This document shows, piece by piece, positions 67-16,237 of a stretch of 64,000 nt of DNA. The position numbers and the translations under genes were made by a program. This stretch comes from a virus. Position 1 is the stretch's first letter, and each line of letters starts with the position of its first letter. The DNA is taken from IMG/VR virus record IMGVR_UViG_3300042731_007021, positions 1 to 64,000 of that record; one strand, written 5' to 3'. The notes beneath the pieces were generated by a model. The model worked only from the letters and a program-made list of their open reading frames with translations. It made no database searches and was not told the origin of the DNA.

Positions 67-271
67 ACCATAGAAAAATCGCAGTCAATCCTCCACCTAC
101 CATTAGGATTCTTAGCCATCCACTAGTATATTTATAATAAAATTCAGTGTCGTTAACGAATGGCGTTGATGCTATAAAAAAGGCTTTTAATATTCTGTAT
201 AAAGTTTTCACCACTATCTCCAATTACTCATCGCCGGATGGAAATGCAACTGTCAACTCGGACGGCAGGCG

Positions 272-490
272 TTATATTTCGCGCAAAAATGTGCGCCACC
301 ATGCAAGTTGTTGTGATCCAGGACGCGAGTCCCATTCATTCCGTTTGTTCACAAACAACTGGTCTGGCGGAGCGTATGGTTTCATTGCGTTGGCGTGTCG
401 CCACGCTCGTCTGATGCGCAACAACAATTTAATAATAATATCAACGCAAAGCACCAGCAATGCGAGATATAGCAAATCGGTTAAGTTCAC
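272..490 (-). CDS. small membrane-anchored hypothetical protein (cassette-like gene)
   Basis: 72-aa ORF with N-terminal hydrophobic helix and GGGAG RBS; stop TAA lies within GTTATAT core site at 271-277. Confidence 0.7.
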   Translation of the reverse strand: MNLTDLLYLALLVLCVDIIIKLLLRIRRAWRHANAMKPYAPPDQLFVNKRNEWDSRPGSQQLAWWRTFLREI

Positions 491-510
491 TTCCGTCTCC
501 CTTTTGCATC

Positions 511-564
511 AAATAACAATTGCTTCAAGCGACGACTCAGCTCGTCTTACGCTGAGCGTTATGC
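511..564 (+). mobile_element. attC-like recombination site B
   Basis: AAATAAC AATT GCTTCAAG CGACGA-ctcagc-TCGT CTTACGC TGAGC GTTATGC; same layout as classic short attC sites (TAAC AATT..TTCAAG...CTTA..AGC GTTA) with an extrahelical C. Confidence 0.8.
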
Positions 565-795
565 CGGGCCAATTAATTTAGTGTGGCGCGGCGGTTGTTC
601 GGCAGAGTATAAAAAACCGTCCTCGCCAAGCATCAACCCACCAGCCCCTCGCTTTGTAAATTCGCCGTGCCATTTTCCTATTTCCGGGTCACACTCAGAG
701 CAAAGCAACGGCTCGTCGTTACATTTTTTCCACCAGTACCCACACAAGGCTGTATTCTCAACATCCCCGCATTTTTCACATTTGAAAAGTGGCAT
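559..795 (-). CDS. small Cys-rich (CxxC...CxxC) hypothetical protein, cassette gene; start MPLFKCEKC
   Basis: ATG lies within the R'' box of site C and the stop within the R' box of site B; the ORF-track extension to 855 is translated attC sequence. Confidence 0.7.
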   Translation of the reverse strand: MPLFKCEKCGDVENTALCGYWWKKCNDEPLLCSECDPEIGKWHGEFTKRGAGGLMLGEDGFLYSAEQPPRHTKLIGPA

Positions 796-876
796 AACAA
801 CATGCTCCAGTTGCGACGGCCTTGCCCAGGCCTGTCGGGTTAAAATGTGCGCCACGCCTGAGCATGGCCGTTATAT
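792..876 (+). mobile_element. attC-like recombination site C
   Basis: GCATAAC AAC ATGCTCCAG ... CTGAGCAT GGCC GTTATAT; ATGCTC(C)AG pairs with CTGAGCAT leaving one extra C. Confidence 0.8.
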
Positions 877-1071
877 TTCCTTAATGCTGTCCACAGTTAT
901 AGCCCAAGGCCACCCGCGTCTACTGCCTGTTTCACCGAGCACCTTTTTAACCTTCGTTATAGCACCAGCTTTCGTTTCTGCTTTTATAGTCAGTTTTTCA
1001 GCTTCATCCCATCGCGGAAAGTAATATCCGGTGGGGTCTTTCTCTGTTGCTCTGATCGCAAATTCAAACAC
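871..1071 (-). CDS. hypothetical protein, cassette gene
   Basis: 66-aa ORF with GGAGGTG RBS; exactly fills the space between sites C and D. Confidence 0.75.
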   Translation of the reverse strand: MFEFAIRATEKDPTGYYFPRWDEAEKLTIKAETKAGAITKVKKVLGETGSRRGWPWAITVDSIKEI

Positions 1072-1087
1072 TCACCACCTCCCAAAA

Positions 1088-1145
1088 ATATAACAATGAA
1101 ATGCAATAGGTTCGCTGCGCTCCCGACTGATTTTTTCCGTTATAT
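1088..1145 (+). mobile_element. attC-like recombination site D
   Basis: ATATAAC AATG AAATGCA ...TTCGCTGCGCTC... CTGATTT TTTCC GTTATAT. Confidence 0.7.
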
Positions 1146-1382
1146 TTCAAAATCAGATTTTCGAAACCCGGCTTCTCGGAAGCCTGTAAACACACTGATG
1201 CATTGCGGGCAAGTAATTTTTTGCCCAGGAGGTGCTTTGACAGTTCCAAACGTACCGACATGAATGTACGGGTCATTTGCATCCAAACCGCACAGTGTGT
1301 CGTAATCAGTTGGGAAACAATTTATTGCATGCCAAATGACGCCATCTGATTCTCTGACTCCTATAACTCTGCTCATCCCCAC
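1140..1382 (-). CDS. small putative Zn-binding hypothetical protein (H..TLCG..ITCPQC)
   Basis: 80-aa ORF; stop within R' of site D. Confidence 0.7.
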   Translation of the reverse strand: MGMSRVIGVRESDGVIWHAINCFPTDYDTLCGLDANDPYIHVGTFGTVKAPPGQKITCPQCISVFTGFREAGFRKSDFEI

Positions 1383-1576
1383 AACTCCTTAGCTTTTTTA
1401 AGCGCTTTAATAAAGTTGTCGATGTCTTCTATGGTGCATATTGGGCAGTCTTCTCCCTCTACACCGACAATACCGACAGCCTTACCACGACGGACAATTA
1501 AATCACCTGAATCATCAAATCTGATGCCCTCAACCTCTTCGTTTACTTCTTCTCTGATGTCTATGATCATTTTCAT
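1373..1576 (-). CDS. hypothetical protein
   Basis: 67-aa ORF with GGAG RBS, coupled to the next gene. Confidence 0.7.
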   Translation of the reverse strand: MKMIIDIREEVNEEVEGIRFDDSGDLIVRRGKAVGIVGVEGEDCPICTIEDIDNFIKALKKAKELWG

Positions 1577-1598
1577 AATGCTCCGTCAACCTTAATCG

Positions 1599-1802
1599 TT
1601 ATGTGCTTTCCGCTTGAACTTCGGCGCGGGTTTTCACCAACCGGATAACATTCCTGTCCTCATCAAATTCGACCCTATCACCAAAGGCGTATTGATCACT
1701 CAGAAGGTGATTGTTTATTTCGGCCTGGTTTTCTGGCAAGTCTGGATACCGGTAGGCCCAGAATGATTCTCCGGGTATTTTTAAACGTATATTTGGGTCC
1801 AC
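1599..1802 (-). CDS. hypothetical protein, cassette-like gene
   Basis: AGGAG RBS; flanked by GTTATGT (1598) and GCCTAAC (1819). Confidence 0.7.
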   Translation of the reverse strand: MDPNIRLKIPGESFWAYRYPDLPENQAEINNHLLSDQYAFGDRVEFDEDRNVIRLVKTRAEVQAEST

Positions 1803-1818
1803 AGTATTAATCTCCTGC

Positions 1819-1924
1819 GCCTAACACGGCACACATTGACGCATTTTTACCTGGTATGTCATTCTATATCTCGCTAGTTGGCACGTTCCGCTGCGCTCTA
1901 CGCCGCACAGTTTTGATGTTCAGC
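1819..1924 (+). mobile_element. degenerate attC-like site F
   Basis: GCCTAAC ... CCGCTGCGCTC ... GTTCAGC; arms pair poorly. Confidence 0.4.
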
Positions 1925-2162
1925 GTCCACGCTTCGCTTGATATGCGTAGCATCCGAACGGTTCTCCGAGTGCCTCACTCATAGCCTTGCAGGTCGAACA
2001 CGGGCGAGTTGATACCGTGTGCATGTCTACCGATAAGACCTTTATGGCCTCAATAAGGGACGCTGAACCAGCCATTGAAGAGGAATTGCTCTCGTTGGCG
2101 TTTCGTTTAAAAGTGCAAATCGGGTCACATTCTTCACCACATTCAGGGCTACATTTACTCAT
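1920..2162 (-). CDS. Cys-rich hypothetical protein
   Basis: 80-aa ORF with GAGG RBS. Confidence 0.6.
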   Translation of the reverse strand: MSKCSPECGEECDPICTFKRNANESNSSSMAGSASLIEAIKVLSVDMHTVSTRPCSTCKAMSEALGEPFGCYAYQAKRGR

Positions 2163-2195
2163 TCCGCAATCCTCTTAATAGTGAACGTTATAGGG

Positions 2196-2495
2196 CTAAT
2201 CGGCGTATCTGGTAATCGCCCTATGTAATTCTTCCAGCCCAATGTCGGGGTTGTCATCAAGTAGTCGTTTTCGCATTTTCAGCGCATTCCGGTTAATCAA
2301 TCCATGCTCATAAGCGTCAATCGGCATCGCAATTCCGCGCTCTGTTCGTCCACTGCATACTGCCTGATCATAAGCCTCGGTTTCTTCATGGTACTGTTTA
2401 GCCAGTTCATATAATCGGCGGTCTTTTTCGGTAGGAGTGAAGTCTCCATATAACAAGGCGCTAAACTCGGACTCGTCTCTCTTCGCTGCGCTCAT
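2196..2495 (-). CDS. hypothetical protein; likely start MSAAKRDE inside attC site H
   Basis: GGAGAGGAACA-ATG at 2495, in frame with the track ORF. Confidence 0.65.
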   Translation of the reverse strand: MSAAKRDESEFSALLYGDFTPTEKDRRLYELAKQYHEETEAYDQAVCSGRTERGIAMPIDAYEHGLINRNALKMRKRLLDDNPDIGLEELHRAITRYAD

Positions 2496-2526
2496 TGTTC
2501 CTCTCCGGTTATGCCAAGCGTTATAT
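2448..2526 (+). mobile_element. attC-like recombination site H
   Basis: ATATAAC AAGG CGCTAAAC TCGGA...CTTCGCTGCGCTC...TCCG GTTATGC CAAGC GTTATAT. Confidence 0.75.
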
Positions 2527-2533
2527 TTAAAAA

Positions 2534-2815
2534 TCACACCCCTGTTCCTAACACAGCGTCAAAGCCTTCGGTCACGGCAGCTTTTACAAGGTCGTGCCCC
2601 TGCCCGTATTTGAAATAATCAGCCACCTGCTTGGTTAATTCCGTATGCACGATTTCAGTCACTTTCCCTTGCCAGTCATAGGACTCTATCACCTTCTCAA
2701 TCTCGACCTTCAGGACCTCCCCCATCTCGCTATTATGTGCACCAAGATGCGTCAAAATGGTGGACTTCATTTGTTCAACTTCTAGCCGTATGAGCGGCAT
2801 CGCTTCATGATTCAT
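2534..2815 (-). CDS. hypothetical protein
   Basis: 93-aa ORF with AGGAG RBS. Confidence 0.7.
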   Translation of the reverse strand: MNHEAMPLIRLEVEQMKSTILTHLGAHNSEMGEVLKVEIEKVIESYDWQGKVTEIVHTELTKQVADYFKYGQGHDLVKAAVTEGFDAVLGTGV

Positions 2816-2846
2816 TGTATTAATCTCCTGCGCGTTAACTCAAGCG

Positions 2847-3167
2847 CTAGTCAGCCCTCGGTCTCAGTTCGACTTCTTCAAACATCGACGTTCTGGCGAG
2901 TAACATAGCAGCAAGGTTCGCGACGTCCACCCAGTCCTCCGACTCTACGTTTTTAATGAGCCGGGTTTTTAAATCTGAATTCTCACATTGCGGAGTATTC
3001 CACCCGTTATACCCGTTTTCACGCTTCTCTTTTAATCGTTCTCGCATCTTATGTTCCGCAAAATCTACAAGTAGGCTATCTGCAACCTTGGGGTGGACGC
3101 TCGTTACAAAAGCTACCAGCAAAATATCGTCTGCTTTCTTTTTTGCTAACTCCAGCCTTTCAATCAT
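2847..3167 (-). CDS. conserved-type phage helical protein (GYNGW...C...DWVDVANLAAML), possibly MazG-like fold
   Basis: motif recognition only. Confidence 0.5.
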   Translation of the reverse strand: MIERLELAKKKADDILLVAFVTSVHPKVADSLLVDFAEHKMRERLKEKRENGYNGWNTPQCENSDLKTRLIKNVESEDWVDVANLAAMLLARTSMFEEVELRPRAD

Positions 3168-3203
3168 GTTCCTATCTCCTATTAAAATGGCTAATATACC
3201 TAT

Positions 3204-3455
3204 TCAATTGGCACCTTTCGGCCTGCCTGGTTCCAGAACCTCACATCGAATCAGCTTTTCAGCGTCCAGGGTACTTGGGTCGAACGCCACCTTGACCGAA
3301 GAGGTGGCCTTGGCCCCTGCCCTTGCGGCATAACTGTTAATGCCTTGCATGGCTATCCCTACTTCACCAGCTGGCACCGGGTAGTAAACCACAGTGCCAG
3401 CCGGCATGCGCAAAAAGTCGCCGACTGGGGGGTAGAATTGTGAAAATTTTGGCAT
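3204..3455 (-). CDS. hypothetical protein
   Basis: 83-aa ORF with AGGA RBS. Confidence 0.6.
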   Translation of the reverse strand: MPKFSQFYPPVGDFLRMPAGTVVYYPVPAGEVGIAMQGINSYAARAGAKATSSVKVAFDPSTLDAEKLIRCEVLEPGRPKGAN

Positions 3456-3490
3456 TGGATTTCCTGGTTAATTTAGGTTAATTGAAAAAT

Positions 3491-3892
3491 TCACCGCACC
3501 AACTTCACCGTCACCCGGCGAGAACCAAAAGTCGTCTTGAATATCTTCTTCAGATCGATCGGGGATAGGTATTTGCGCAGATCGGTGATACTGAACTTGG
3601 CCAGTTTATAGGCCAGGCCTTTTTCAACATCCTCCAGCATTTGGGCGGCAGTCGTAGTATTTTTTACTACGTTGGATTCAGCCTTCTTTCCGATGTTGAT
3701 CTCACATCCAGGAGCGCTCAGATTCGCCGATTCAAGCCTACCCAGTCCGCCTTTCTCAACATGTTCGACAATCAATTTGACGGCGGCGTTATAATCGGCG
3801 GTGATATGTTCAAGCTCAGTTGAAACTTTGTCTTTGGCGCTTTTCAATTCTGCAATTTCGTTCATTGCTGCGGTGTAACTCTTTACGGACAT
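3491..3892 (-). CDS. hypothetical protein with N-terminal coiled coil
   Basis: 133-aa ORF with GGAG RBS, directly downstream of a sigma70 promoter. Confidence 0.75.
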   Translation of the reverse strand: MSVKSYTAAMNEIAELKSAKDKVSTELEHITADYNAAVKLIVEHVEKGGLGRLESANLSAPGCEINIGKKAESNVVKNTTTAAQMLEDVEKGLAYKLAKFSITDLRKYLSPIDLKKIFKTTFGSRRVTVKLVR

Positions 3893-11014: not shown

Positions 11015-11452
11015 TCAATTTCCCTTGTCACCTTCAAGCAAGCGTTGCCGTATGTCCATTAGCAACTTTCCTAACATATTTTTACCTTTCCCGTCACACA
11101 CGCCCCAGAAAGTATCCCCCCAGGTATTGCCTTCGATGAGTTCAACATCCCCTGTTCTCTTTAATTTTCTGGCTAAATAACTACCACAAGCAAATTTCTG
11201 CTCTAATAATTCTTGCATTACTGAAACTTTAATCTCGTCCCAATCTTCCCGGATACCTATTTCCCTGGAAAGTCTCTTTGATTGCCCAGGGGTGCAGCAT
11301 TGGAACTGAAACCTCAAGTTAGTGGGGACTTTAGCAGCCTGATAAGCGTTTTCCAGTGTGGGAAACAATTGGTCATGATAAACTATTTTTACTTTATAAA
11401 AGTTTGACAAAAACCTATTTTCTCCGCTGAATCTATCGATAGCTTTGGGCAT
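11015..11452 (-). CDS. NADAR (YbiA/DUF1768) family protein; likely start MPKAIDRF
   Basis: FLSNFY, ENAYQAAK, LEQKF, LIEGNTWGDTFWGV...GKNMLGKLLMDIR. Confidence 0.92.
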   Translation of the reverse strand: MPKAIDRFSGENRFLSNFYKVKIVYHDQLFPTLENAYQAAKVPTNLRFQFQCCTPGQSKRLSREIGIREDWDEIKVSVMQELLEQKFACGSYLARKLKRTGDVELIEGNTWGDTFWGVCDGKGKNMLGKLLMDIRQRLLEGDKGN

Positions 11453-11485
11453 CCAAATTTCTCCTATACACATATAATATTCAAC

Positions 11486-11836
11486 TTAAAACGGACACTC
11501 GTCTTCACCCCGCCTTGATTCCACCACCCCAATCTCATGGTGGAACTCAAACTCTTCCACCCTATCAGGGTCTGCGTGAATGCACGTATGATCAGCGTCC
11601 TCTATGGCCCCTTTATTGTGCGGCCAATCATTGCCCCGGCAAAAACACCCACGTCTACTGGACCGCTCTTTTTCCTTTTTGTTAACGCTTTTCAACGTGT
11701 CCCGACCACAGCCTGGGCATAGTGGCCTCTTGGCATAGTGGTCTATCGGCTGATTAAGGGCCAGCCTGGCCCCACAATTTCTTCTATCTGTGCAGCGGTA
11801 GTTAAGGGACATAAGCGCTGTACCCAGGTAATGCAA
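11486..11836 (-). CDS. Cys/His-rich putative Zn-binding protein
   Basis: C..C, CPGC, CFC...WPH motifs; start uncertain. Confidence 0.65.
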   Translation of the reverse strand: MHYLGTALMSLNYRCTDRRNCGARLALNQPIDHYAKRPLCPGCGRDTLKSVNKKEKERSSRRGCFCRGNDWPHNKGAIEDADHTCIHADPDRVEEFEFHHEIGVVESRRGEDECPF

Positions 11837-11885
11837 TGCTATGGATGTGTTTTTGCATATGAGCCGACTGGCGCATTAATGCCTG

Positions 11886-12221
11886 TTATCTAGCATTAAA
11901 GTCCGGTTTTTCCGGCCACACAAAAGGCATAATCCAATAATAATCTTGATCCGGCTCACCATCCATCCAAAACTCTATCACAGTGCCTTCCTCGCTGAAT
12001 AAAATATCGCCATCAAAATGTAAAATTTCAACTTCACTGGCTTTGGGGCTAGATATGTAATACATGCCGCCTTTAGTTAGGCTGTAATTTTTTGTCAACC
12101 TTGCCCATCCGCCATGCTGCGATAACAAGTCACTGTTGCAGGAACTCACTACGCTATCCATTAACCGCTCTATCTCGCCTTCGGCTATAGTTTCGTGGTC
12201 TTCCATTTTTACTTTAATCAT
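11886..12221 (-). CDS. hypothetical protein; stop within a GTTATCT core site
   Basis: 111-aa ORF with GAGGA RBS. Confidence 0.7.
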   Translation of the reverse strand: MIKVKMEDHETIAEGEIERLMDSVVSSCNSDLLSQHGGWARLTKNYSLTKGGMYYISSPKASEVEILHFDGDILFSEEGTVIEFWMDGEPDQDYYWIMPFVWPEKPDFNAR

Positions 12222-12388
12222 TCGCTAGTCCTCAAAGTTCAATCGTTGTATTGCTTAGCTGCTGCTGCTGGCAATAACGAGCCATCCATCTGAGGTCTTG
12301 CGACTCAGACGCTAGTAGTGGCCAGGTTGGCGTTCAAACCAAAACCCGAGGAATTTAATGCTTTGTTCTGCACCCATCAGTGCCTCCG

Positions 12389-12688
12389 TTATGCCGCAAG
12401 CCCGCGAGCGCGAAGCTCGAACCATATCGAGTGCATCGCCTGTACGGCTTCTGCGGATAGCTTGATCCTGGTCTCATGTCCGCTGTTCACAAAAATAAAG
12501 GCAAACGAATCGTCATCGGCGGGGAAAACCGAAATGCTGCGGCCTCCAGATAGTTCGCATTTAATGCCTTTGATTGGCTCATCAGGCATAGCAAGCGCAT
12601 CAACAGAGGAAGCGCTGTCGCTTTGCAATCCACAAGTACATTCAGTTTGAGTACATTGGGTTAAATCTCTTTGTTCACATTCTTTCAT
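12389..12688 (-). CDS. hypothetical protein; N-terminus overlaps a degenerate attC-like site
   Basis: stop within GTTATGC (12388); GGCATAGC AAGC GCATCAACAG at about 12585 is read as ...VDALAMP. Confidence 0.6.
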   Translation of the reverse strand: MKECEQRDLTQCTQTECTCGLQSDSASSVDALAMPDEPIKGIKCELSGGRSISVFPADDDSFAFIFVNSGHETRIKLSAEAVQAMHSIWFELRARGLAA

Positions 12689-12726
12689 TCCGCGCTCCTG
12701 TTGGACAACCTTTTAATATGACTGTT

Positions 12727-12756
12727 AGTCGCACACAGCCGAAACCGTGTGCGACT
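12727..12756 (-). terminator. hairpin downstream of the Gp49-family gene
   Basis: AGTCGCACAC / GTGTGCGACT 10-bp inverted repeat; no clear U-tract. Confidence 0.45.
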
Positions 12757-12761
12757 GTTGG

Positions 12762-13064
12762 TTACGCTGCTTCGTGCAGTTTCTGCTTCAGAGCGTAGCC
12801 CTCCAAGGCCCAGATTTTTTCTCTGGCATTGTTCCTGGCAATCTTGCGCCCCAGCTCGGCGTTGAAGTTCTCAGGGCTTGCGCAGGCGCTTTCTCCAGTC
12901 ACAGTGAAACCGTTCGCCAAGGTCAGGCAGCACACGGTAAGCTGACTGCCGGGGAATACGTGATAGTCCTCGCCAGCAATCACCTCATCCAGTCGCTCAG
13001 GAGTAACACGCGGCGCAGTCAGTCCTTTGTCCTGAATCTCTTTTTCAATTTCTTGCTCACTCAT
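12762..13064 (-). CDS. Gp49 family protein (N4 gp49 / Sf6 gp66), cassette gene
   Basis: APRVT...LTVCCLTLANGFTVTGESACASPENFNAELGRKIA...KIWALEGY. Confidence 0.9.
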   Translation of the reverse strand: MSEQEIEKEIQDKGLTAPRVTPERLDEVIAGEDYHVFPGSQLTVCCLTLANGFTVTGESACASPENFNAELGRKIARNNAREKIWALEGYALKQKLHEAA

Positions 13065-13080
13065 TTTTCAAAGTCTCAGC

Positions 13081-13167
13081 GGCTAACAGTAAATTCCACG
13101 GGACGTGGGATAGTCCGCGCTTCGCATCTGGCCGCATTCAGCGCGCCCGTGAATAAAAGTGTTAGTT
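13081..13167 (+). mobile_element. attC-like recombination site J
   Basis: GGCTAAC AGTA AATTC(C)ACGGG ... CCCGTGAAT AAAAGT GTTAGTT; extrahelical C. Confidence 0.82.
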
Positions 13168-13410
13168 TTCTTCAATCCATGCGGCACAAGTTTCTTCACC
13201 TTGCGGTACTTCTGTATACCCTAAATCCGCATGGCAGTAAGTTCCTTCACGCTGTATCAATTCTCTGAACTTCTTGTCACTCACCCCAAGCACAATAATT
13301 GTACATCTCGGGTCAGTAATACCAAGACCAATTACAGCATGAGCAATCTGTGCGGCCACTTTGCCCTCAGTCATTTTTAAGTTTTTTCTGTAAATCGCTT
13401 TTATTCTCAT
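13162..13410 (-). CDS. peptidyl-tRNA hydrolase PTH2-type protein (short), cassette gene
   Basis: LKMTEGKVAAQIAHA, IIVL, DLGYTEVPQGEETC motifs. Confidence 0.85.
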   Translation of the reverse strand: MRIKAIYRKNLKMTEGKVAAQIAHAVIGLGITDPRCTIIVLGVSDKKFRELIQREGTYCHADLGYTEVPQGEETCAAWIEEN

Positions 13411-13424
13411 AAATCACCATCAAA

Positions 13425-13484
13425 AATTAACAACGCCATTAAATCCGACTAGCTATCGCTCTCAGTTTATGGCGAGCGTTATAG
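13425..13484 (+). mobile_element. attC-like recombination site K
   Basis: AATTAAC AAC GCCAT(T)AAA ... TTTATGGC GAGC GTTATAG. Confidence 0.8.
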
Positions 13485-13688
13485 CGTATTCTGCTCTTTC
13501 AACTTTTGCAGATCAGCCATCAATTCCTCATTGTTCGCAATGCACTCAGCAGTGAAGCGGTAACGTGTCCAGTGCATAGGTGCATCGTCATCAATAATCT
13601 GGCACAGCACCCAGGCGATGCGGTCTGTCGTGTTCGCGGTTTCTTTGTTAAAAGGTTCAAACATTTCGATATCCTCAAAGTGCGCCAT
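13479..13688 (-). CDS. hypothetical protein, cassette gene; start MAHFEDIE
   Basis: ATG within R'' of site L, stop within R' of site K. Confidence 0.7.
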   Translation of the reverse strand: MAHFEDIEMFEPFNKETANTTDRIAWVLCQIIDDDAPMHWTRYRFTAECIANNEELMADLQKLKEQNTL

Positions 13689-13747
13689 AATACGGCGCTG
13701 TGGAGGGGAGCGCAAAAGACGCGCTCCCCTAAGCTAAAACGTTAATG
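13685..13747 (+). mobile_element. attC-like recombination site L (R'' reads TAAT instead of TAAC)
   Basis: CCATAAT ACGG CGCT GTGG AGGGGAGCGC aaaagac GCGCTCCCCT AAGC TAAAAC GTTAATG. Confidence 0.65.
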
Positions 13748-14083
13748 CCACCAGAGAAAAATCTCGGTATCTGGTGGCAACGCCTTCATGTATTCCATAA
13801 CGGCCCTGTTTTTCGGGCTGAGTTTATACTTAGCCATTGCATCAGCAATAAGTTTTGCGCGTGTCGAAGTAAGCCGGTCGCCATAATTATCTTTGTCGGT
13901 ATCTTCCAGCCCTTCATCGTCGTACCAATGCAGCTTACGGCCCTGTCTAAATTCAACGACACCGCAGTTTCTTATTGAATCCTGCATGTCATAGTCACGG
14001 TCTGTCAGCAGTCTCTCGTAAGCGAGTGGCAGGTTATCGTCTTTTACGAACGCATTAACCACTAAAGTTAAACTTACTCCCAT
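13742..14083 (-). CDS. hypothetical phage protein (D.YGD.LT...NRAVMEYMKALP...LWWH), cassette gene
   Basis: 113-aa ORF with GGAGGTG RBS; stop within R' of site L. Confidence 0.75.
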   Translation of the reverse strand: MGVSLTLVVNAFVKDDNLPLAYERLLTDRDYDMQDSIRNCGVVEFRQGRKLHWYDDEGLEDTDKDNYGDRLTSTRAKLIADAMAKYKLSPKNRAVMEYMKALPPDTEIFLWWH

Positions 14084-14164
14084 GTGTCACCTCCAAAGGT
14101 CACTATCAATTAATTCAAGAGGACGGCAAAACCGCCCTATGCAAAACACAGGTTGTTATACAAC

Positions 14165-14533
14165 TTATCCAATTTCAGCGAGAATGTCGGAGAAGATGAC
14201 GGCCTCGCTTTTGCTGTCCACGTTAAGAGGCTGGATTCCAGTAGGTTCGAAAGAAAGCCCTTTTCCCTCTCCGATTACCCAAATCATCTTACCTTTCATC
14301 TCAGAGAAATCATTAACGTTCAATGCCAGCAGTAAGCGGCGGATAACCTCGCAACCATACGCAGTTCCTACCCGACTTTGCTTCTCTTCGTCCCATTGAT
14401 CTAATGCAATACCCCCAACACCCTGTGAACCCCCATCTTCATAATCAACATGAATCCAGAAATTAAGAATCCCACGCTCTTGGATCTCCAGGGCAGCTTT
14501 TGAAATTTTAGCTAGTTGTTTCGTCATATTCAT
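14165..14533 (-). CDS. conserved-type phage hypothetical protein
   Basis: 122-aa ORF; GTTATAC core site 4 nt beyond the stop. Confidence 0.75.
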   Translation of the reverse strand: MNMTKQLAKISKAALEIQERGILNFWIHVDYEDGGSQGVGGIALDQWDEEKQSRVGTAYGCEVIRRLLLALNVNDFSEMKGKMIWVIGEGKGLSFEPTGIQPLNVDSKSEAVIFSDILAEIG

Positions 14534-14590
14534 TCTCCAATAAGTTGCTGTTATGCGCTATCTGTCTCACTATAAAAATATTCATCAAAT

Positions 14591-14646
14591 TAAAAAAGCC
14601 AAACCGGAAGGGCGGAGCAGGGTTGATGAACATACACCCTTCCGGC
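14591..14646 (-). terminator. possible intrinsic terminator
   Basis: CCGGAAGGG/CCCTTCCGG inverted repeat with a long loop, followed by a T6 run on the minus strand. Confidence 0.4.
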
Positions 14647-14679
14647 CTGACAAGAGGCTTGTGTAAAGCCCCGACACAA

Positions 14680-14919
14680 TTAATCAATTCCCAGCGCTTC
14701 CCTGATGCGCTTCTTGGTGTCTTTTACCCCTTCCTGGTAGACATCGTTAAGTAAGTTTTCCATCGCAACCTGTTGAACAGTTTGCTGCTCAAATTTGGGA
14801 ATGTACTCTGATATATAAGCCCTTAACACGCCATTTATATAAACAGCTTTAGGTGAACTTACGTCGCCTGTTTCACTATGCCTTATTACGACCATGTTAG
14901 TCTCCGTCTTTAGTTTCAT
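14680..14919 (-). CDS. hypothetical protein
   Basis: 79-aa ORF, ATGA coupling. Confidence 0.65.
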   Translation of the reverse strand: MKLKTETNMVVIRHSETGDVSSPKAVYINGVLRAYISEYIPKFEQQTVQQVAMENLLNDVYQEGVKDTKKRIREALGID

Positions 14920-15254
14920 TCATCAAATAAAGGGTCAAAGTCAGCCTCGGCTTCCAGTCGCTCCTGTTTTTCTTCGTAAGCCTCAAGCGCCGTCATATCC
15001 CTCTTATTGTTTTTCACCTTAGCATATCTTTTATCCCGCTGTTTAATGTTGTGAGCTTTCATGCACAAAATACAATTGCCGTGGGATTTGTAGCGCAGCA
15101 CTTTGTCGTCGAAATTGTGACCGTTGGGGCAAGCTTTTCCTATATACATGTGGCCGGGAGTCGGCTTACCCTGGTGGATGACCTCAACACACAACTTGAA
15201 TGCAGTGCTGGACATCTGGATGGATCTATTTTGTCTGTTTTCCTGTTCGTTCAT
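14916..15254 (-). CDS. protein with an HNH-associated Zn-finger-like motif (GKACPNGH...RY...CILC)
   Basis: motif recognition. Confidence 0.6.
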   Translation of the reverse strand: MNEQENRQNRSIQMSSTAFKLCVEVIHQGKPTPGHMYIGKACPNGHNFDDKVLRYKSHGNCILCMKAHNIKQRDKRYAKVKNNKRDMTALEAYEEKQERLEAEADFDPLFDE

Positions 15255-15499: not shown

Positions 15500-16237
15500 T
15501 CAACTGCAAGCTTTTTCAGCTATGGCCTGGAGGTCTATATTCCGGCCGCTGTTTTTCGTTGCCCGTGCCGCTGCCGCTGCTGCCCATGCCGCTGCCTCTG
15601 CTGCCCATGCAGTTGCCGCTGCTGCCCGTGCCGCTGCCTCTGCTGCCTCTGCCCGTGCCTCTGCCGCTGCTGCCCGTGCCGCTGCCTCTGCTGCCCATGC
15701 AGTTGCCGCTGCTGCCCATGCAGTTGCCGCTGCTGCCCGTGCCGCTGCCTCTGCTGCCTCTGCCCGTGCCTCTGCCGCTGCTGCCCGTGCCGCTGCCTCT
15801 GCTGCCCGTGCCGCTGCCTCTGCTGCCTCTGCTGCCGCCACCGATCGATCTTCCCCTGACATCCATTTTTCAGCCCAGTTAGTAAATCCCTTATCCTTGT
15901 TAACTTCCAAGGCGCAAAGGATGGCATATTTAATCCTTTGTTCCAGGGTAATATTCGGAATCGACAATTCCATTATCAAGGTCAATTCAGTCACTCCGCA
16001 CTTCATTCCCATATCGTCTTTAAATTCCCCTCCCCCCTCGCATTCAAAAAGCCTTGGGGTTTCGATATTGGTATGGACAGGGTTGTGGAGAACGGCAATC
16101 AAAGGAGAGCTATATGCGTGAAGCCATCCGCCGCTGCAAAGGTCATCACTTCCTGACGTGGTTTCTGTTTTTCCTATCTCCCATTGAAATCCATTGTAGG
16201 TTTGGAGGGATTTATTTGTAAGTTTATAGAGTTTCAT
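15500..16237 (-). CDS. phage protein with globular N-terminus (YKLT...LCSGGWLHAY) and Ala-rich tandem repeats
   Basis: AAARAAEAAA / AWAAEAAA repeats; widespread phage architecture. Confidence 0.8.
   Translation of the reverse strand: MKLYKLTNKSLQTYNGFQWEIGKTETTSGSDDLCSGGWLHAYSSPLIAVLHNPVHTNIETPRLFECEGGGEFKDDMGMKCGVTELTLIMELSIPNITLEQRIKYAILCALEVNKDKGFTNWAEKWMSGEDRSVAAAEAAEAAARAAEAAARAAAAEARAEAAEAAARAAAATAWAAAATAWAAEAAARAAAAEARAEAAEAAARAAAATAWAAEAAAWAAAAAARATKNSGRNIDLQAIAEKACS
15559..15840. repeat. coding minisatellite of shuffled GCA/GCG-rich units
   Basis: repeated gcccgtgccgctgcctctgct and gcccatgcagttgccgctgct blocks. Confidence 0.9.

Follow-up and report, generated by a model that had tools for sequence, protein, structure and literature searches.

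Two attC-type recombination sites of full anatomy lie between small genes of a phage genome, beside genes for an Acb4-family protein and for a shortened PTH2-like protein, and members of both gene families stand between attC sites in other arrays as well. We consider it probable that this region is a row of integron-type cassettes, eroded in part and likely delivered by a host integrase, that carries an Acb4-family sponge and a minimal PTH2 and serves counter-defence. The row would lie on the leftward (minus-strand) early-gene arm of the phage, each unit consisting of one small gene followed by a folded attC-type recombination site on the plus strand, and the cargo, antisense to attC, would be read by phage transcription.

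The phage originates from a wetland, and the analysed stretch of DNA (called the window) comprises 64 kb of its genome of about 81 kb. All cargo open reading frames were found on the minus strand at the positions given in a first-pass annotation (12762-13064, 13162-13410, 13479-13688 or 13715, and 13742-14083). Among the open reading frames at the low-coordinate end of the block are a 111-aa gene (11886-12221, minus strand), whose stop codon lies inside TGTTAT, and a 99-aa gene (12389-12688, minus strand); the functions of both are unassigned and neither product matched a Pfam, PHROG or NCBIfam family or a PDB structure. These are followed on the same strand by the 100-aa Acb4-family gene (12762-13064; PF13876, N4 gp49/Sf6 gp66), the 82-aa PTH2-like gene (13162-13410; phrog_31188) and a functionally unassigned 69-aa gene (13479-13688; 78 aa if translation starts at the TTG at 13715), whose product matched nothing across Pfam, PHROGs, NCBIfam, PDB and Atlas. 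The 113-aa gene (13742-14083, minus strand) belongs to a viral family without assigned function, its Atlas matches being viral hypothetical clusters only. The 122-aa gene (14165-14533, minus strand; phrog_30930, E 3.2e-13), also without assigned function, is part of a widespread and highly conserved family (437 of 452 candidate proteins at E <= 0.001), and none among the 120 matches listed carries an informative name. On the side from which transcription enters the block, an intrinsic-terminator-like hairpin is present at 14587-14651 (minus strand; fold of 14534-14679), its 17-bp stem leading into a T run. The window also encodes a tRNA-Met, and a NADAR gene is located 1.3 kb from the block. 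Orphan antitoxin-like enzymes of phages neutralise DarTG1, according to the accessible part of a paper with 83 mentions of NADAR.

Sites were identified with a strict attC grammar (TAAC, a spacer of 2-6 nt, a stem with a bulged base in the 5' arm, a spacer of 2-7 nt, GTTA), for whose calibration the integron carried by Vibrio phage Va_90-11-286_p16 served. In that phage the array strand gave 14-15 matches and the opposite strand 0, and the remaining 27 kb gave 0-1 matches on the array strand and 0-2 on the other strand with the mirrored grammar. The window yielded three matches, all on the plus strand. Site J (13084-13164, plus strand, 10 paired bases), which belongs to the Acb4 cassette, consists of TAAC, a 5-nt spacer, ATTC[C]ACGGG, in which one C is bulged, pairing with CCCGTGAAT, a 6-nt spacer and GTTA. 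Site K (13428-13481, plus strand, 10 paired bases), which belongs to the PTH2-like cassette, consists of TAAC, a 2-nt spacer, CGCCAT[T]AAA pairing with TTTATGGCG, a 3-nt spacer and GTTA. J and K each contain the R''/L''/L'/R' boxes, spacers that stay unpaired and, in one of the arms, an extrahelical base. In 150 dinucleotide shuffles of the window, matches with 10 paired bases averaged 0.093 and none of the shuffles contained two or more. The stop codon of the next gene falls inside the GTTA of J and likewise of K, so that the PTH2-like gene fills the interval J-K exactly, as had been claimed before. End footprints (R'' flank against the remainder of R') agree at 8 of 9 bases between position 12724 and J and at 8 of 10 between J and K; in real arrays they are perfect over 8-10 bases. 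L104, a clean metagenomic array, contains another site of the J type, with 63 of 81 positions identical and a score of 32 against a shuffle maximum of 16.

Only two of the four to five boundaries in the block (J and K) are well formed. GTTAGTC at 12724-12730 (plus strand), an R'-like half-site without an upstream attC, is the possible left junction of the Acb4 cassette. In a MAFFT alignment it shares columns with the GTTAGC R' boxes of attC sites in L003, L015 and L011, and its reverse complement agrees at 8 of 9 bases with those preceding the AAC of J. The motif was counted four times in the window with 4.61 expected, a chance frequency that lends no support to its earlier assignment as a cassette boundary. 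The hairpin that had been ascribed to the Acb4-family gene itself was recovered as a stem of 10-13 bp just past the stop codon (12727-12756; ssDNA fold z -2.65 on the plus and -3.71 on the minus strand), and 0 of 200 shuffles were equally stable. Site L (13685-13747, plus strand) is an eroded attC-like site with a very stable hairpin at 13704-13730 (z -4.82/-5.80) and GTTA at 13741-13744, in which ATAATAC takes the place of the TAAC box, and it fails the attC grammar. An eroded boundary at 14084-14164 (plus strand; fold z -3.02), with a small hairpin and GTTAT at 14155-14159, has neither a TAAC box nor a grammar match. The two genes described as filling K-L and L to about 14155 are correctly placed, but L and the boundary near 14155 are not well-formed sites.

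The hairpins between the genes might instead belong to a compact early operon as ordinary RNA or transcription elements of the phage, namely terminators or stem-loops for processing or stabilising mRNA; any resemblance to attC would then be coincidental, and the genes would be 'morons' moved by illegitimate or homologous recombination. Site L, the 12727-12756 hairpin and the terminator at 14598-14651 are simple G+C-rich stem-loops in keeping with this explanation, GTTAGTC stands at chance level, and the folding energies of J and K as ssDNA are unremarkable (z -1.54 for J and -1.08 for K, plus strand). A plain scan for TAAC...GTTA combined with folding energy is unspecific and matches coding DNA throughout the window. 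Two further points in its favor, the missing integrase and the limits of DNA homology at Acb4 loci, are given below. We nevertheless judge this explanation improbable, as the strand-specific anatomy of J and K (5'-arm bulge, spacers, TAAC and GTTA boxes) did not arise twice in any shuffle, the grammar matches are confined to one strand, which is also the pattern of a real integron, a site of the J type occurs again in a clean array whose end footprints span 8-10 bases, and the same gene families are found between textbook attC sites elsewhere.

Among 80 viral loci with Acb4-family genes, an antisense attC site was detected within 250 nt in four and a sense attC in none, and 76 had no detectable adjacent attC site. 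The attC-bounded loci are L003, L006, L011 and L015 (viral) together with L116, a P22-like prophage in a Methylobacter MAG in which the Acb4 gene is flanked by attC on both sides. The sites bounding these genes are of the textbook size of 50-60 bp, and the end footprints at the viral Acb4 cassettes are perfect over 9-10 bases. A homologue of the 113-aa gene with 65% identity lies between two attC sites in L104 with an 8-base end footprint, and a PTH2-like gene is a cassette in L092. Acb4-family, 113-aa and PTH2-like genes therefore occur as attC-bounded units in unrelated arrays, and the Acb4 gene as an integron-type cassette appears to be new. None of the other window genes is common to the compared cassette loci, DNA homology among Acb4 loci is limited to the coding region, and two DNA runs revealed no excision or insertion variants. 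The claim that the block is a cassette array stands for J and K, by virtue of the calibrated grammar, and for the families that are attC-bounded elsewhere; GTTAGTC, L and the boundary near 14155 lack the full attC anatomy.

Since the attC sites are canonical on the plus strand and all genes are on the minus strand, the genes run opposite to those of canonical cassettes. The same reversal relative to attC was seen in L003, L006, L015, L104 and L116. No integron integrase was detected in the 64-kb window of the roughly 81-kb genome (tblastn with Vibrio IntIA, best E 0.086), nor in five of five related viral records. Two of three MAGs of the kind that contains L116 carry integron integrases above cut-off on other contigs. 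Judged on 64 of about 81 kb, an array without IntI or attI in cis would classify as a CALIN. Because the window has no integrase, a host integron integrase is the most likely agent to have delivered and shuffled the cassettes, the older sites presumably having decayed later.

The product of 12762-13064 is a member of the Acb4 family by sequence and fold. It matched PF13876 over profile positions 1-82 of 82 (112.7 bits, cut-off 27, E 1.2e-32) and phrog_322 (E 1.4e-55), and its sole PDB sequence match in phmmer was 9E4W, the structure of the anti-CBASS 4 protein Acb4 from Bacillus phage SPO1 (E 1.1e-4; 28% identity). The AF2 model (pLDDT 86.6; H3-12, H22-27, E29-36, E42-49, E54-60, H69-99) contains the fold of the Acb4 protomer, with N-terminal helices, three antiparallel strands and long C-terminal helices. 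In Foldseek searches of the PDB 13 matches had E <= 0.001, and the ten listed first were all chains of 9E4W (TMq 0.61-0.63, rmsd down to 1.4 A). The earlier suggestion that the N4 gp49/Sf6 gp66 family includes Acb4, for which comparison of HMMs and structures had been proposed, is confirmed by the accessible part of the Acb4 paper, which assigns SPO1 Acb4 to PF13876. A tetramer was predicted with a score of 0.95 (best of three controls 0.00), a mark that was reached in calibration by 20 of 30 one-chain-pair proteins and by 1 of 23 single-chain proteins, the present job differing from the calibration set-up in its four copies and custom alignment; as the like complex 9E4W is solved, the score may also reflect recall. 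Contacts agreed to at least 97% between runs, partner pLDDT was at least 93, and the predicted interfaces (strands 33-62; C-terminal helix 83-98 against 49-53) agree with the published description of Acb4. On these models, the protein is most likely a tetrameric cyclic-dinucleotide sponge. It shares with SPO1 Acb4 and N4 gp49 the Pfam family, a length of about 100 aa, the succession of helix, three strands and long helix, the tetramer as predicted here and the adenine-pocket residues.

In the alignment, F48, F62, N63 and I66 of SPO1 Acb4, the last three of which form the adenine pocket, correspond to F53, F67, N68 and L71. Across 25 relatives F67 is invariant, position 68 is N or D, and position 71 is L or I. 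The guanine-specific and phosphate contacts K36, E49, Y57 and T70 of SPO1 Acb4 are replaced by Q41, T54, A62 and I75, so that the ligand may differ. According to the accessible part of the Acb4 paper, 3'3'-cGAMP was bound by eight of eight diverse PF13876 homologues, those from Gram-negative phages bound c-di-AMP too, and the Acb4 fold resembles dsRNA-binding domains. A 2026 preprint reports a c-di-AMP affinity of 111 nM for Acb4 of phage N4.

The product of 13162-13410 was recognized by Pfam PF01981 (30.3 bits, cut-off 23) with residues 6-28 only, and scored 29.1 and 26.2 bits against two NCBIfam equivalogs with cut-offs of 126 and 82 bits. It has 19 viral relatives of 80-82 aa. Across 13 sequences G16, K17, Q21, H24, A25, D62, G64 and T66 do not vary, and the corresponding GK..AQ..HA and D.G.T motifs align with archaeal Pth2. 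The AF2 model (pLDDT 92.7) retrieved exclusively Pth2 enzymes or Pth2-family structures among its best ten Foldseek matches in the PDB (E 3.7e-5 to 1.4e-3, TMq 0.67-0.80). It comprises two helices and four strands, compared with four helices and four strands in the canonical Pth2 domain of 116-120 aa, and is about 35 residues shorter, two helices being missing. As modeled, the protein is a conserved 82-residue minimal PTH2 fold that retains the PTH2 motif residues. Fold and motif residues are shared with PTH2 of jumbo phages (Iyer et al., 2021, PMC7824862) and with archaeal and eukaryotic Pth2 (2ZV3, 3ERJ, 1XTY, 1Q7S), but the window form has 82 instead of 116-120 aa, two helices fewer and, as in L092, the setting of an attC cassette. 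PTH2 accompanies translation and tRNA genes in many jumbo phages, where it was proposed to rescue ribosomes after host tRNA cleavage (Iyer et al., 2021); the window protein may have a counter-defence role.

The attC sites could be genuine and the cargo not counter-defence: the Acb4 homologue would then bind a housekeeping nucleotide or RNA of the host, the mini-PTH2 would aid phage translation (e.g. by clearing peptidyl-tRNA after drop-off) and the other genes would serve host takeover. The replaced pocket contacts and the dsRBD-like fold are compatible with this, as are the company of translation and tRNA genes kept by PTH2 in jumbo phages (the window has its tRNA-Met) and the finding that 0 of 30 further cassette proteins, from related arrays and from array 1 of the window, had a Pfam family above cut-off. 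The unannotated genes of array 2 have no Pfam family either. Cyclic-dinucleotide binding by all published PF13876 proteins examined, including N4 Acb4, the adenine-pocket residues aligning with F67, N68 and L71, with F67 invariant in the subfamily, and the NADAR gene close by argue against such a housekeeping role, which we regard as unlikely.

In the counter-defence reading that we favor, the cassette at 12725-13160 would supply an Acb4-family protein, most likely a tetramer, which sequesters 3'3'-cGAMP and probably c-di-AMP-like signals from CBASS-type host defences; with the alarm signal sequestered, the defence effector would never be triggered. The cassette at 13161-13477 would supply a minimal PTH2-fold esterase that probably frees tRNA from peptidyl- or N-acyl-aminoacyl-tRNA, so that translation could continue under attack on host tRNA or ribosomes. 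Three unannotated genes of the block may contribute, and the unannotated cassette genes in general are candidates for anti-defence functions.

Clusters of attC sites without integrase (CALINs) were described in phage genomes, and cassettes with methyltransferases were suggested to counter host restriction (Qi et al., 2023, Front Microbiol, PMC9892861, as far as the accessible text goes). The notion that the block is a mirror image of defence-stocking integrons is therefore in part already in print. As in these CALINs, attC-type sites lie between small genes in the window with no integrase nearby; in contrast to the sense-oriented best examples in that text, all cargo of the window is antisense and includes a member of a characterised sponge family and a mini-PTH2, and several sites are eroded. 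Cassettes for defence against phages are stored in sedentary chromosomal integrons (Darracq et al., 2024, preprint, 10.1101/2024.07.02.601686, accessible part). These integrons resemble the window in having single-gene attC cassettes that serve the conflict between phage and host, but the window represents the opposite side: it is carried by a phage, neither IntI nor attI was seen in it, its genes are reversed and its cassettes are far fewer. Compared with published Acb4, the gene is attC-bounded here and at five or more other loci, a setting not found in the accessible text of the Acb4 paper.

The Acb4-family gene anchors the cassette idea in an experimentally characterised family, and its position between integron-type sites suggests an exchange of counter-defence genes among phages in the form of ready-made cassettes. 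We tentatively raise the possibility of a common pool of reversed attC cassettes among phages of environmental Proteobacteria, serving as a counter-defence arsenal. Host integron integrases, induced by infection, would shuffle anti-defence genes singly from one phage genome to another, among them Acb4 sponges, mini-PTH2, methyltransferases and many unknowns; the reversal would keep the genes silent in a bacterial integron and have them expressed from phage promoters. If so, unnamed small cassettes in reversed arrays would be an enriched source of new anti-defence proteins, and looking in phage DNA for small genes flanked by reversed attC sites would provide a simple genomic handle on them. How a phage that lacks an integrase recruits that of its host becomes a testable question. 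If phages do keep their counter-measures as cassettes, both sides of the arms race would exchange parts via one recombination system.

The block of small genes at 11885-14556 (array 2) comprises seven genes, all on the minus strand. The first-pass annotation had taken a GTTAGTC motif (12724) as one boundary of the Gp49-family gene. Bare GTTAGTC occurs 4 times in the window against 4.61 expected, which is chance frequency. A loose scan for TAAC...GTTA combined with folding energy was dropped as non-discriminating (46 matches on one strand and 43 on the other, most of them within coding DNA), and a repeat search of the window left the sites undetected. In view of the chance-level motif and the uninformative hairpin scan, a strict attC grammar was built from the sites of MK672802, a published Vibrio integron that is carried by a phage and mentioned by Qi et al. 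2023 (PMC9892861): TAAC, a spacer of 2-6 nt, a stem with an obligatory bulged base in the 5' arm, a spacer of 2-7 nt and GTTA, with a total length of 45-140 nt. On the MK672802 integron the grammar gave 14-15 matches on the strand of the array and no match on the opposite strand; the remaining 27 kb of this sequence gave 0-1 matches on the same strand and, with a mirrored grammar, 0-2 on the other.

Three matches were obtained in the window, all on the plus strand and all intergenic: 795-873, 13084-13164 (site J) and 13428-13481 (site K). With the stem pairing of J and K (10 paired bases) as threshold, dinucleotide shuffles (n=150) contained 0.093 matches on average, and two matches were reached in 0 of 150. 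The stability of J and K as single-stranded DNA is not unusual. The stop codon of the following minus-strand gene sits inside the GTTA of J and likewise of K, so the Pth2-like gene (13162-13410, minus strand) exactly occupies the interval J-K, as had been proposed. The proposed set of array-2 sites was upheld in part: J and K pass the strict grammar, whereas site L (13685-13747, plus strand), despite its strong hairpin and GTTA, lacks a TAAC box, and only a half-site is present at each of the boundaries 12724 and 14155. From the position of the bulge, the attC 'top' strand is the plus strand, and all cargo is therefore antisense to the canonical arrangement. Near the start of the window, array 1 (270-3800) forms a second row of small minus-strand genes with sites of the form ATAACAA...CGTTATA, among them the strict-grammar match at 795-873; 8 of the 12 CGTTATA motifs on the plus strand of the whole window lie in the first 3.8 kb. 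Site 511-564 ends in GTTATGCC, which is perfectly complementary to GGCATAAC, the start of site 792-876. Positions 1-63 are 63 consecutive A residues, probably a contig-end or assembly artefact.

The gene at 12762-13064 (minus strand, 100 aa) belongs by its match to the Pfam family PF13876, 'N4 Gp49/Sf6 gene 66'; the match spans the complete profile, with 112.7 bits and E 1.2e-32. According to the accessible text of the Acb4 paper, SPO1 Acb4 is a PF13876 member with 1,331 reported homologues, 3'3'-cGAMP was bound by all eight of the eight homologues tested, and homologues from phages of Gram-negative hosts additionally bound c-di-AMP; the available part of a 2026 preprint gives 111 nM for the binding of c-di-AMP by N4 Acb4. 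A PDB sequence search with the window protein returned the SPO1 Acb4 structure 9E4W as its only match (E 1.1e-4), and in a Foldseek search of the PDB with an AlphaFold2 model built from 25 relatives (pLDDT 86.6) the first ten matches listed were all chains of 9E4W. The proposed link between the Gp49 family and Acb4 is thus right on family membership, sequence and fold. Assembly prediction with four copies scored 0.95 against 0.00 for the best control, with at least 97% of contacts agreeing across runs and pLDDT of at least 93. In calibration, 20 of the 30 proteins with a solved structure that pairs copies of one chain came up to this mark, as did 1 of the 23 with a single-chain structure; the tetramer prediction differed from this calibration in its four copies and custom alignment and 9E4W was already solved, so that the result is read as likeness, not proof. 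The adenine-pocket residues of Acb4 align with F67, N68 and L71 of the window protein; the SPO1 Acb4 residues that make the guanine-specific and phosphate contacts have been replaced in it. For this reason we regard 12762-13064, from its sequence and predicted fold, as certainly a member of the Acb4 family, its exact ligand being less than certain.

The Pth2-like protein (82 aa) matches the PTH2 profile over residues 6-28 only (30.3 bits) and lies far under the NCBIfam equivalog cut-offs. Equally short relatives, with 48-72% identity, are encoded on 19 viral contigs, many of jumbo-phage size. The motifs GK..AQ..HA and D.G.T are invariant across 13 aligned sequences and align with the same motifs in archaeal Pth2. 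The ten best PDB matches of the predicted model (pLDDT 92.7) are all Pth2 enzymes or Pth2-family structures; the model consists of four strands and two helices, against four of each in the 116-120 residues of canonical Pth2. Given the invariant motifs, the matching fold, the missing helices and the low equivalog scores, 13162-13410 is best described as a minimal PTH2-fold protein that has probably kept the esterase chemistry. PTH2 in jumbo phages has been proposed to rescue ribosomes after tRNA cleavage (Iyer et al. 2021, PMC7824862); in the published text available to us, this proposal was the only support found for a counter-defence role of PTH2.

Loci from other contigs were compared with the window using the same grammar, which is strict enough to recover only 2 of about 10 sites seen by eye in the metagenome contig L104, so that counts of flanked loci are lower bounds. 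Over 1.08 Mb of fetched loci, 36 matches were obtained, where the shuffle rate predicts about 4.3. In the best 80 viral Acb4-family loci, drawn from at least 597 matching stretches, a site lay within 250 nt of the gene in antisense orientation in 4 and in sense orientation in none (5 and 1, respectively, at a looser grammar level). Three loci (L003, L006 and L015) have the Acb4-family gene between textbook 50-60-bp sites on both sides. In L006, the GTTA flank of each site is a perfect complement, over 9-10 bases, of the TAAC flank of the next, a footprint also present in the real Vibrio integron MK672802. Among the best 80 bacterial-genome Acb4 loci, such sites occur in 3, and two of these three MAGs also encode, on other contigs, integron integrases that score above the curated cut-off. 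In a Methylobacter MAG (L116) the Acb4 gene is flanked on both sides; a P22-like portal gene about 2.8 kb away places it in a prophage or phage contig. In a Methylotenera MAG (L114:391-1713), an Acb4-family gene lies beside a D12-class adenine methyltransferase (PF02086, E 5.3e-34), and this gene pair is on the strand opposite to an adjoining homogeneous, sense-oriented attC array.

A metagenome scan with the 113-aa gene at 13742-14083 found a single locus, a 65%-identical homologue in the 2.9-kb contig L104. On this contig 9 TAACAAG-type sites form a clean antisense array, and the footprints between adjacent ends reach as many as 10 bases (8-10 bases in 5 of 8 adjacent pairs). One L104 site is identical to J at 63 of 81 positions; a J-type pattern search of the genome contigs gave no match. 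A Pth2-like gene is a cassette in the jumbo-phage-type contig L092, in sense orientation. Besides Acb4, Pth2 and one weak array-1 match (37%, E 2.2e-5), no further window gene was found in these loci, and these genes therefore move alone. A MAFFT alignment of six Acb4 loci confined homology to the coding region and so did not fix the cassette boundaries. The contigs L088 (8239-8365) and L092 (2699-2823), both jumbo-phage-type, share an element of ~125 nt that lies in the vicinity of Pth2-like genes or directly beside them. It ends in TAAC/GTTAT, has a long outer stem and may be a distinct long attC type.

The window is phage DNA. Among 50,697 phage records it has no close relative, as megablast with 11500-15000 as query gave no match, and a search with a neighbouring 681-aa protein yielded only 3 loci at 39-47% identity, so a synteny comparison was impossible. 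The plus strand carries a structural module including the large terminase, whose closest counterparts are those of ~84-kb Vibrio phages (37% identical); the minus strand carries a long block of small genes and one tRNA-Met. One protein of this block recurs without any change on a contig of 81,161 bases. Five of the seven block genes have no Pfam, PHROG-function, NCBIfam or PDB match, and the Atlas was also uninformative. The 122-aa protein at 14165-14533 (minus strand) belongs to a very conserved family (437 proteins at E <= 0.001); the 120 matches listed are 67-100% identical, and their source names, where present, read only 'hypothetical protein'. Between this gene and that at 14680-14919 lies a strong 17-bp intrinsic-terminator-like hairpin with a T run (14587-14651, minus strand); the cassette block may be a separate transcription unit that starts here. 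Scans for sigma-70 promoters and terminators were at chance level (11 vs 8.7 and 8 vs 6.6). Further along, the gene at 15500-16237 (minus strand) contains 13 copies of an alanine-rich 21-nt tandem repeat, and its product of 245 aa carries DUF7666 as its N-terminal domain.

The stretch was recovered in contigs of two wetland-metagenome DNA runs without a single difference; no joints, indels or variants were seen in these runs, one of which may be the source of the window. In one sample, parts of the block are also represented in contigs from RNA libraries, with pieces spanning J (13044-13205) and K (13368-13602); these are not counted as expression because DNA carry-over is possible and a contig shows no transcript.

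No integrase was detectable within the 64-kb window, out of a genome of ~81 kb, or in five related viral records. In the available text of a preprint, integron integrases are reported to use short GWT sites outside att sites for cassette insertion, and replication slippage is suggested to delete folded attC sites easily. Such insertion, together with slippage loss, would account for the half-site at 12724 and the eroded boundaries at L and 14155. Qi et al. 2023 (PMC9892861), in the part accessible to us, describe 17 attC clusters without integrase in phages, report IntI1 recombination by 5 of 6 sites tested, and suggest that methyltransferase cassettes counter restriction; defence cassettes are stored in chromosomal integrons (Darracq et al. 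2024, 10.1101/2024.07.02.601686, accessible text). In the titles, abstract openings and text passages that our literature search covered, neither an Acb4-family gene nor any other sponge gene is described as a cassette.

None of 30 cassette proteins from L006, L104, L116 and array 1 (0 of 10 in the last) had a Pfam family above cut-off. A NADAR-domain gene (PF08719, E 1.8e-21) lies 1.3 kb from the Acb4 homologue at 11015-11473 (minus strand), where attC-like sites do not bound it; orphan antitoxin-like enzymes of phages neutralise DarTG1 according to the accessible text of a paper that mentions NADAR 83 times, and this gene is possibly a third candidate for counter-defence. The Pth2 and unannotated cargo are counter-defence candidates only. 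The finding is real and the link to Acb4 at its centre is right, and the Acb4-family cassette is its solid part.
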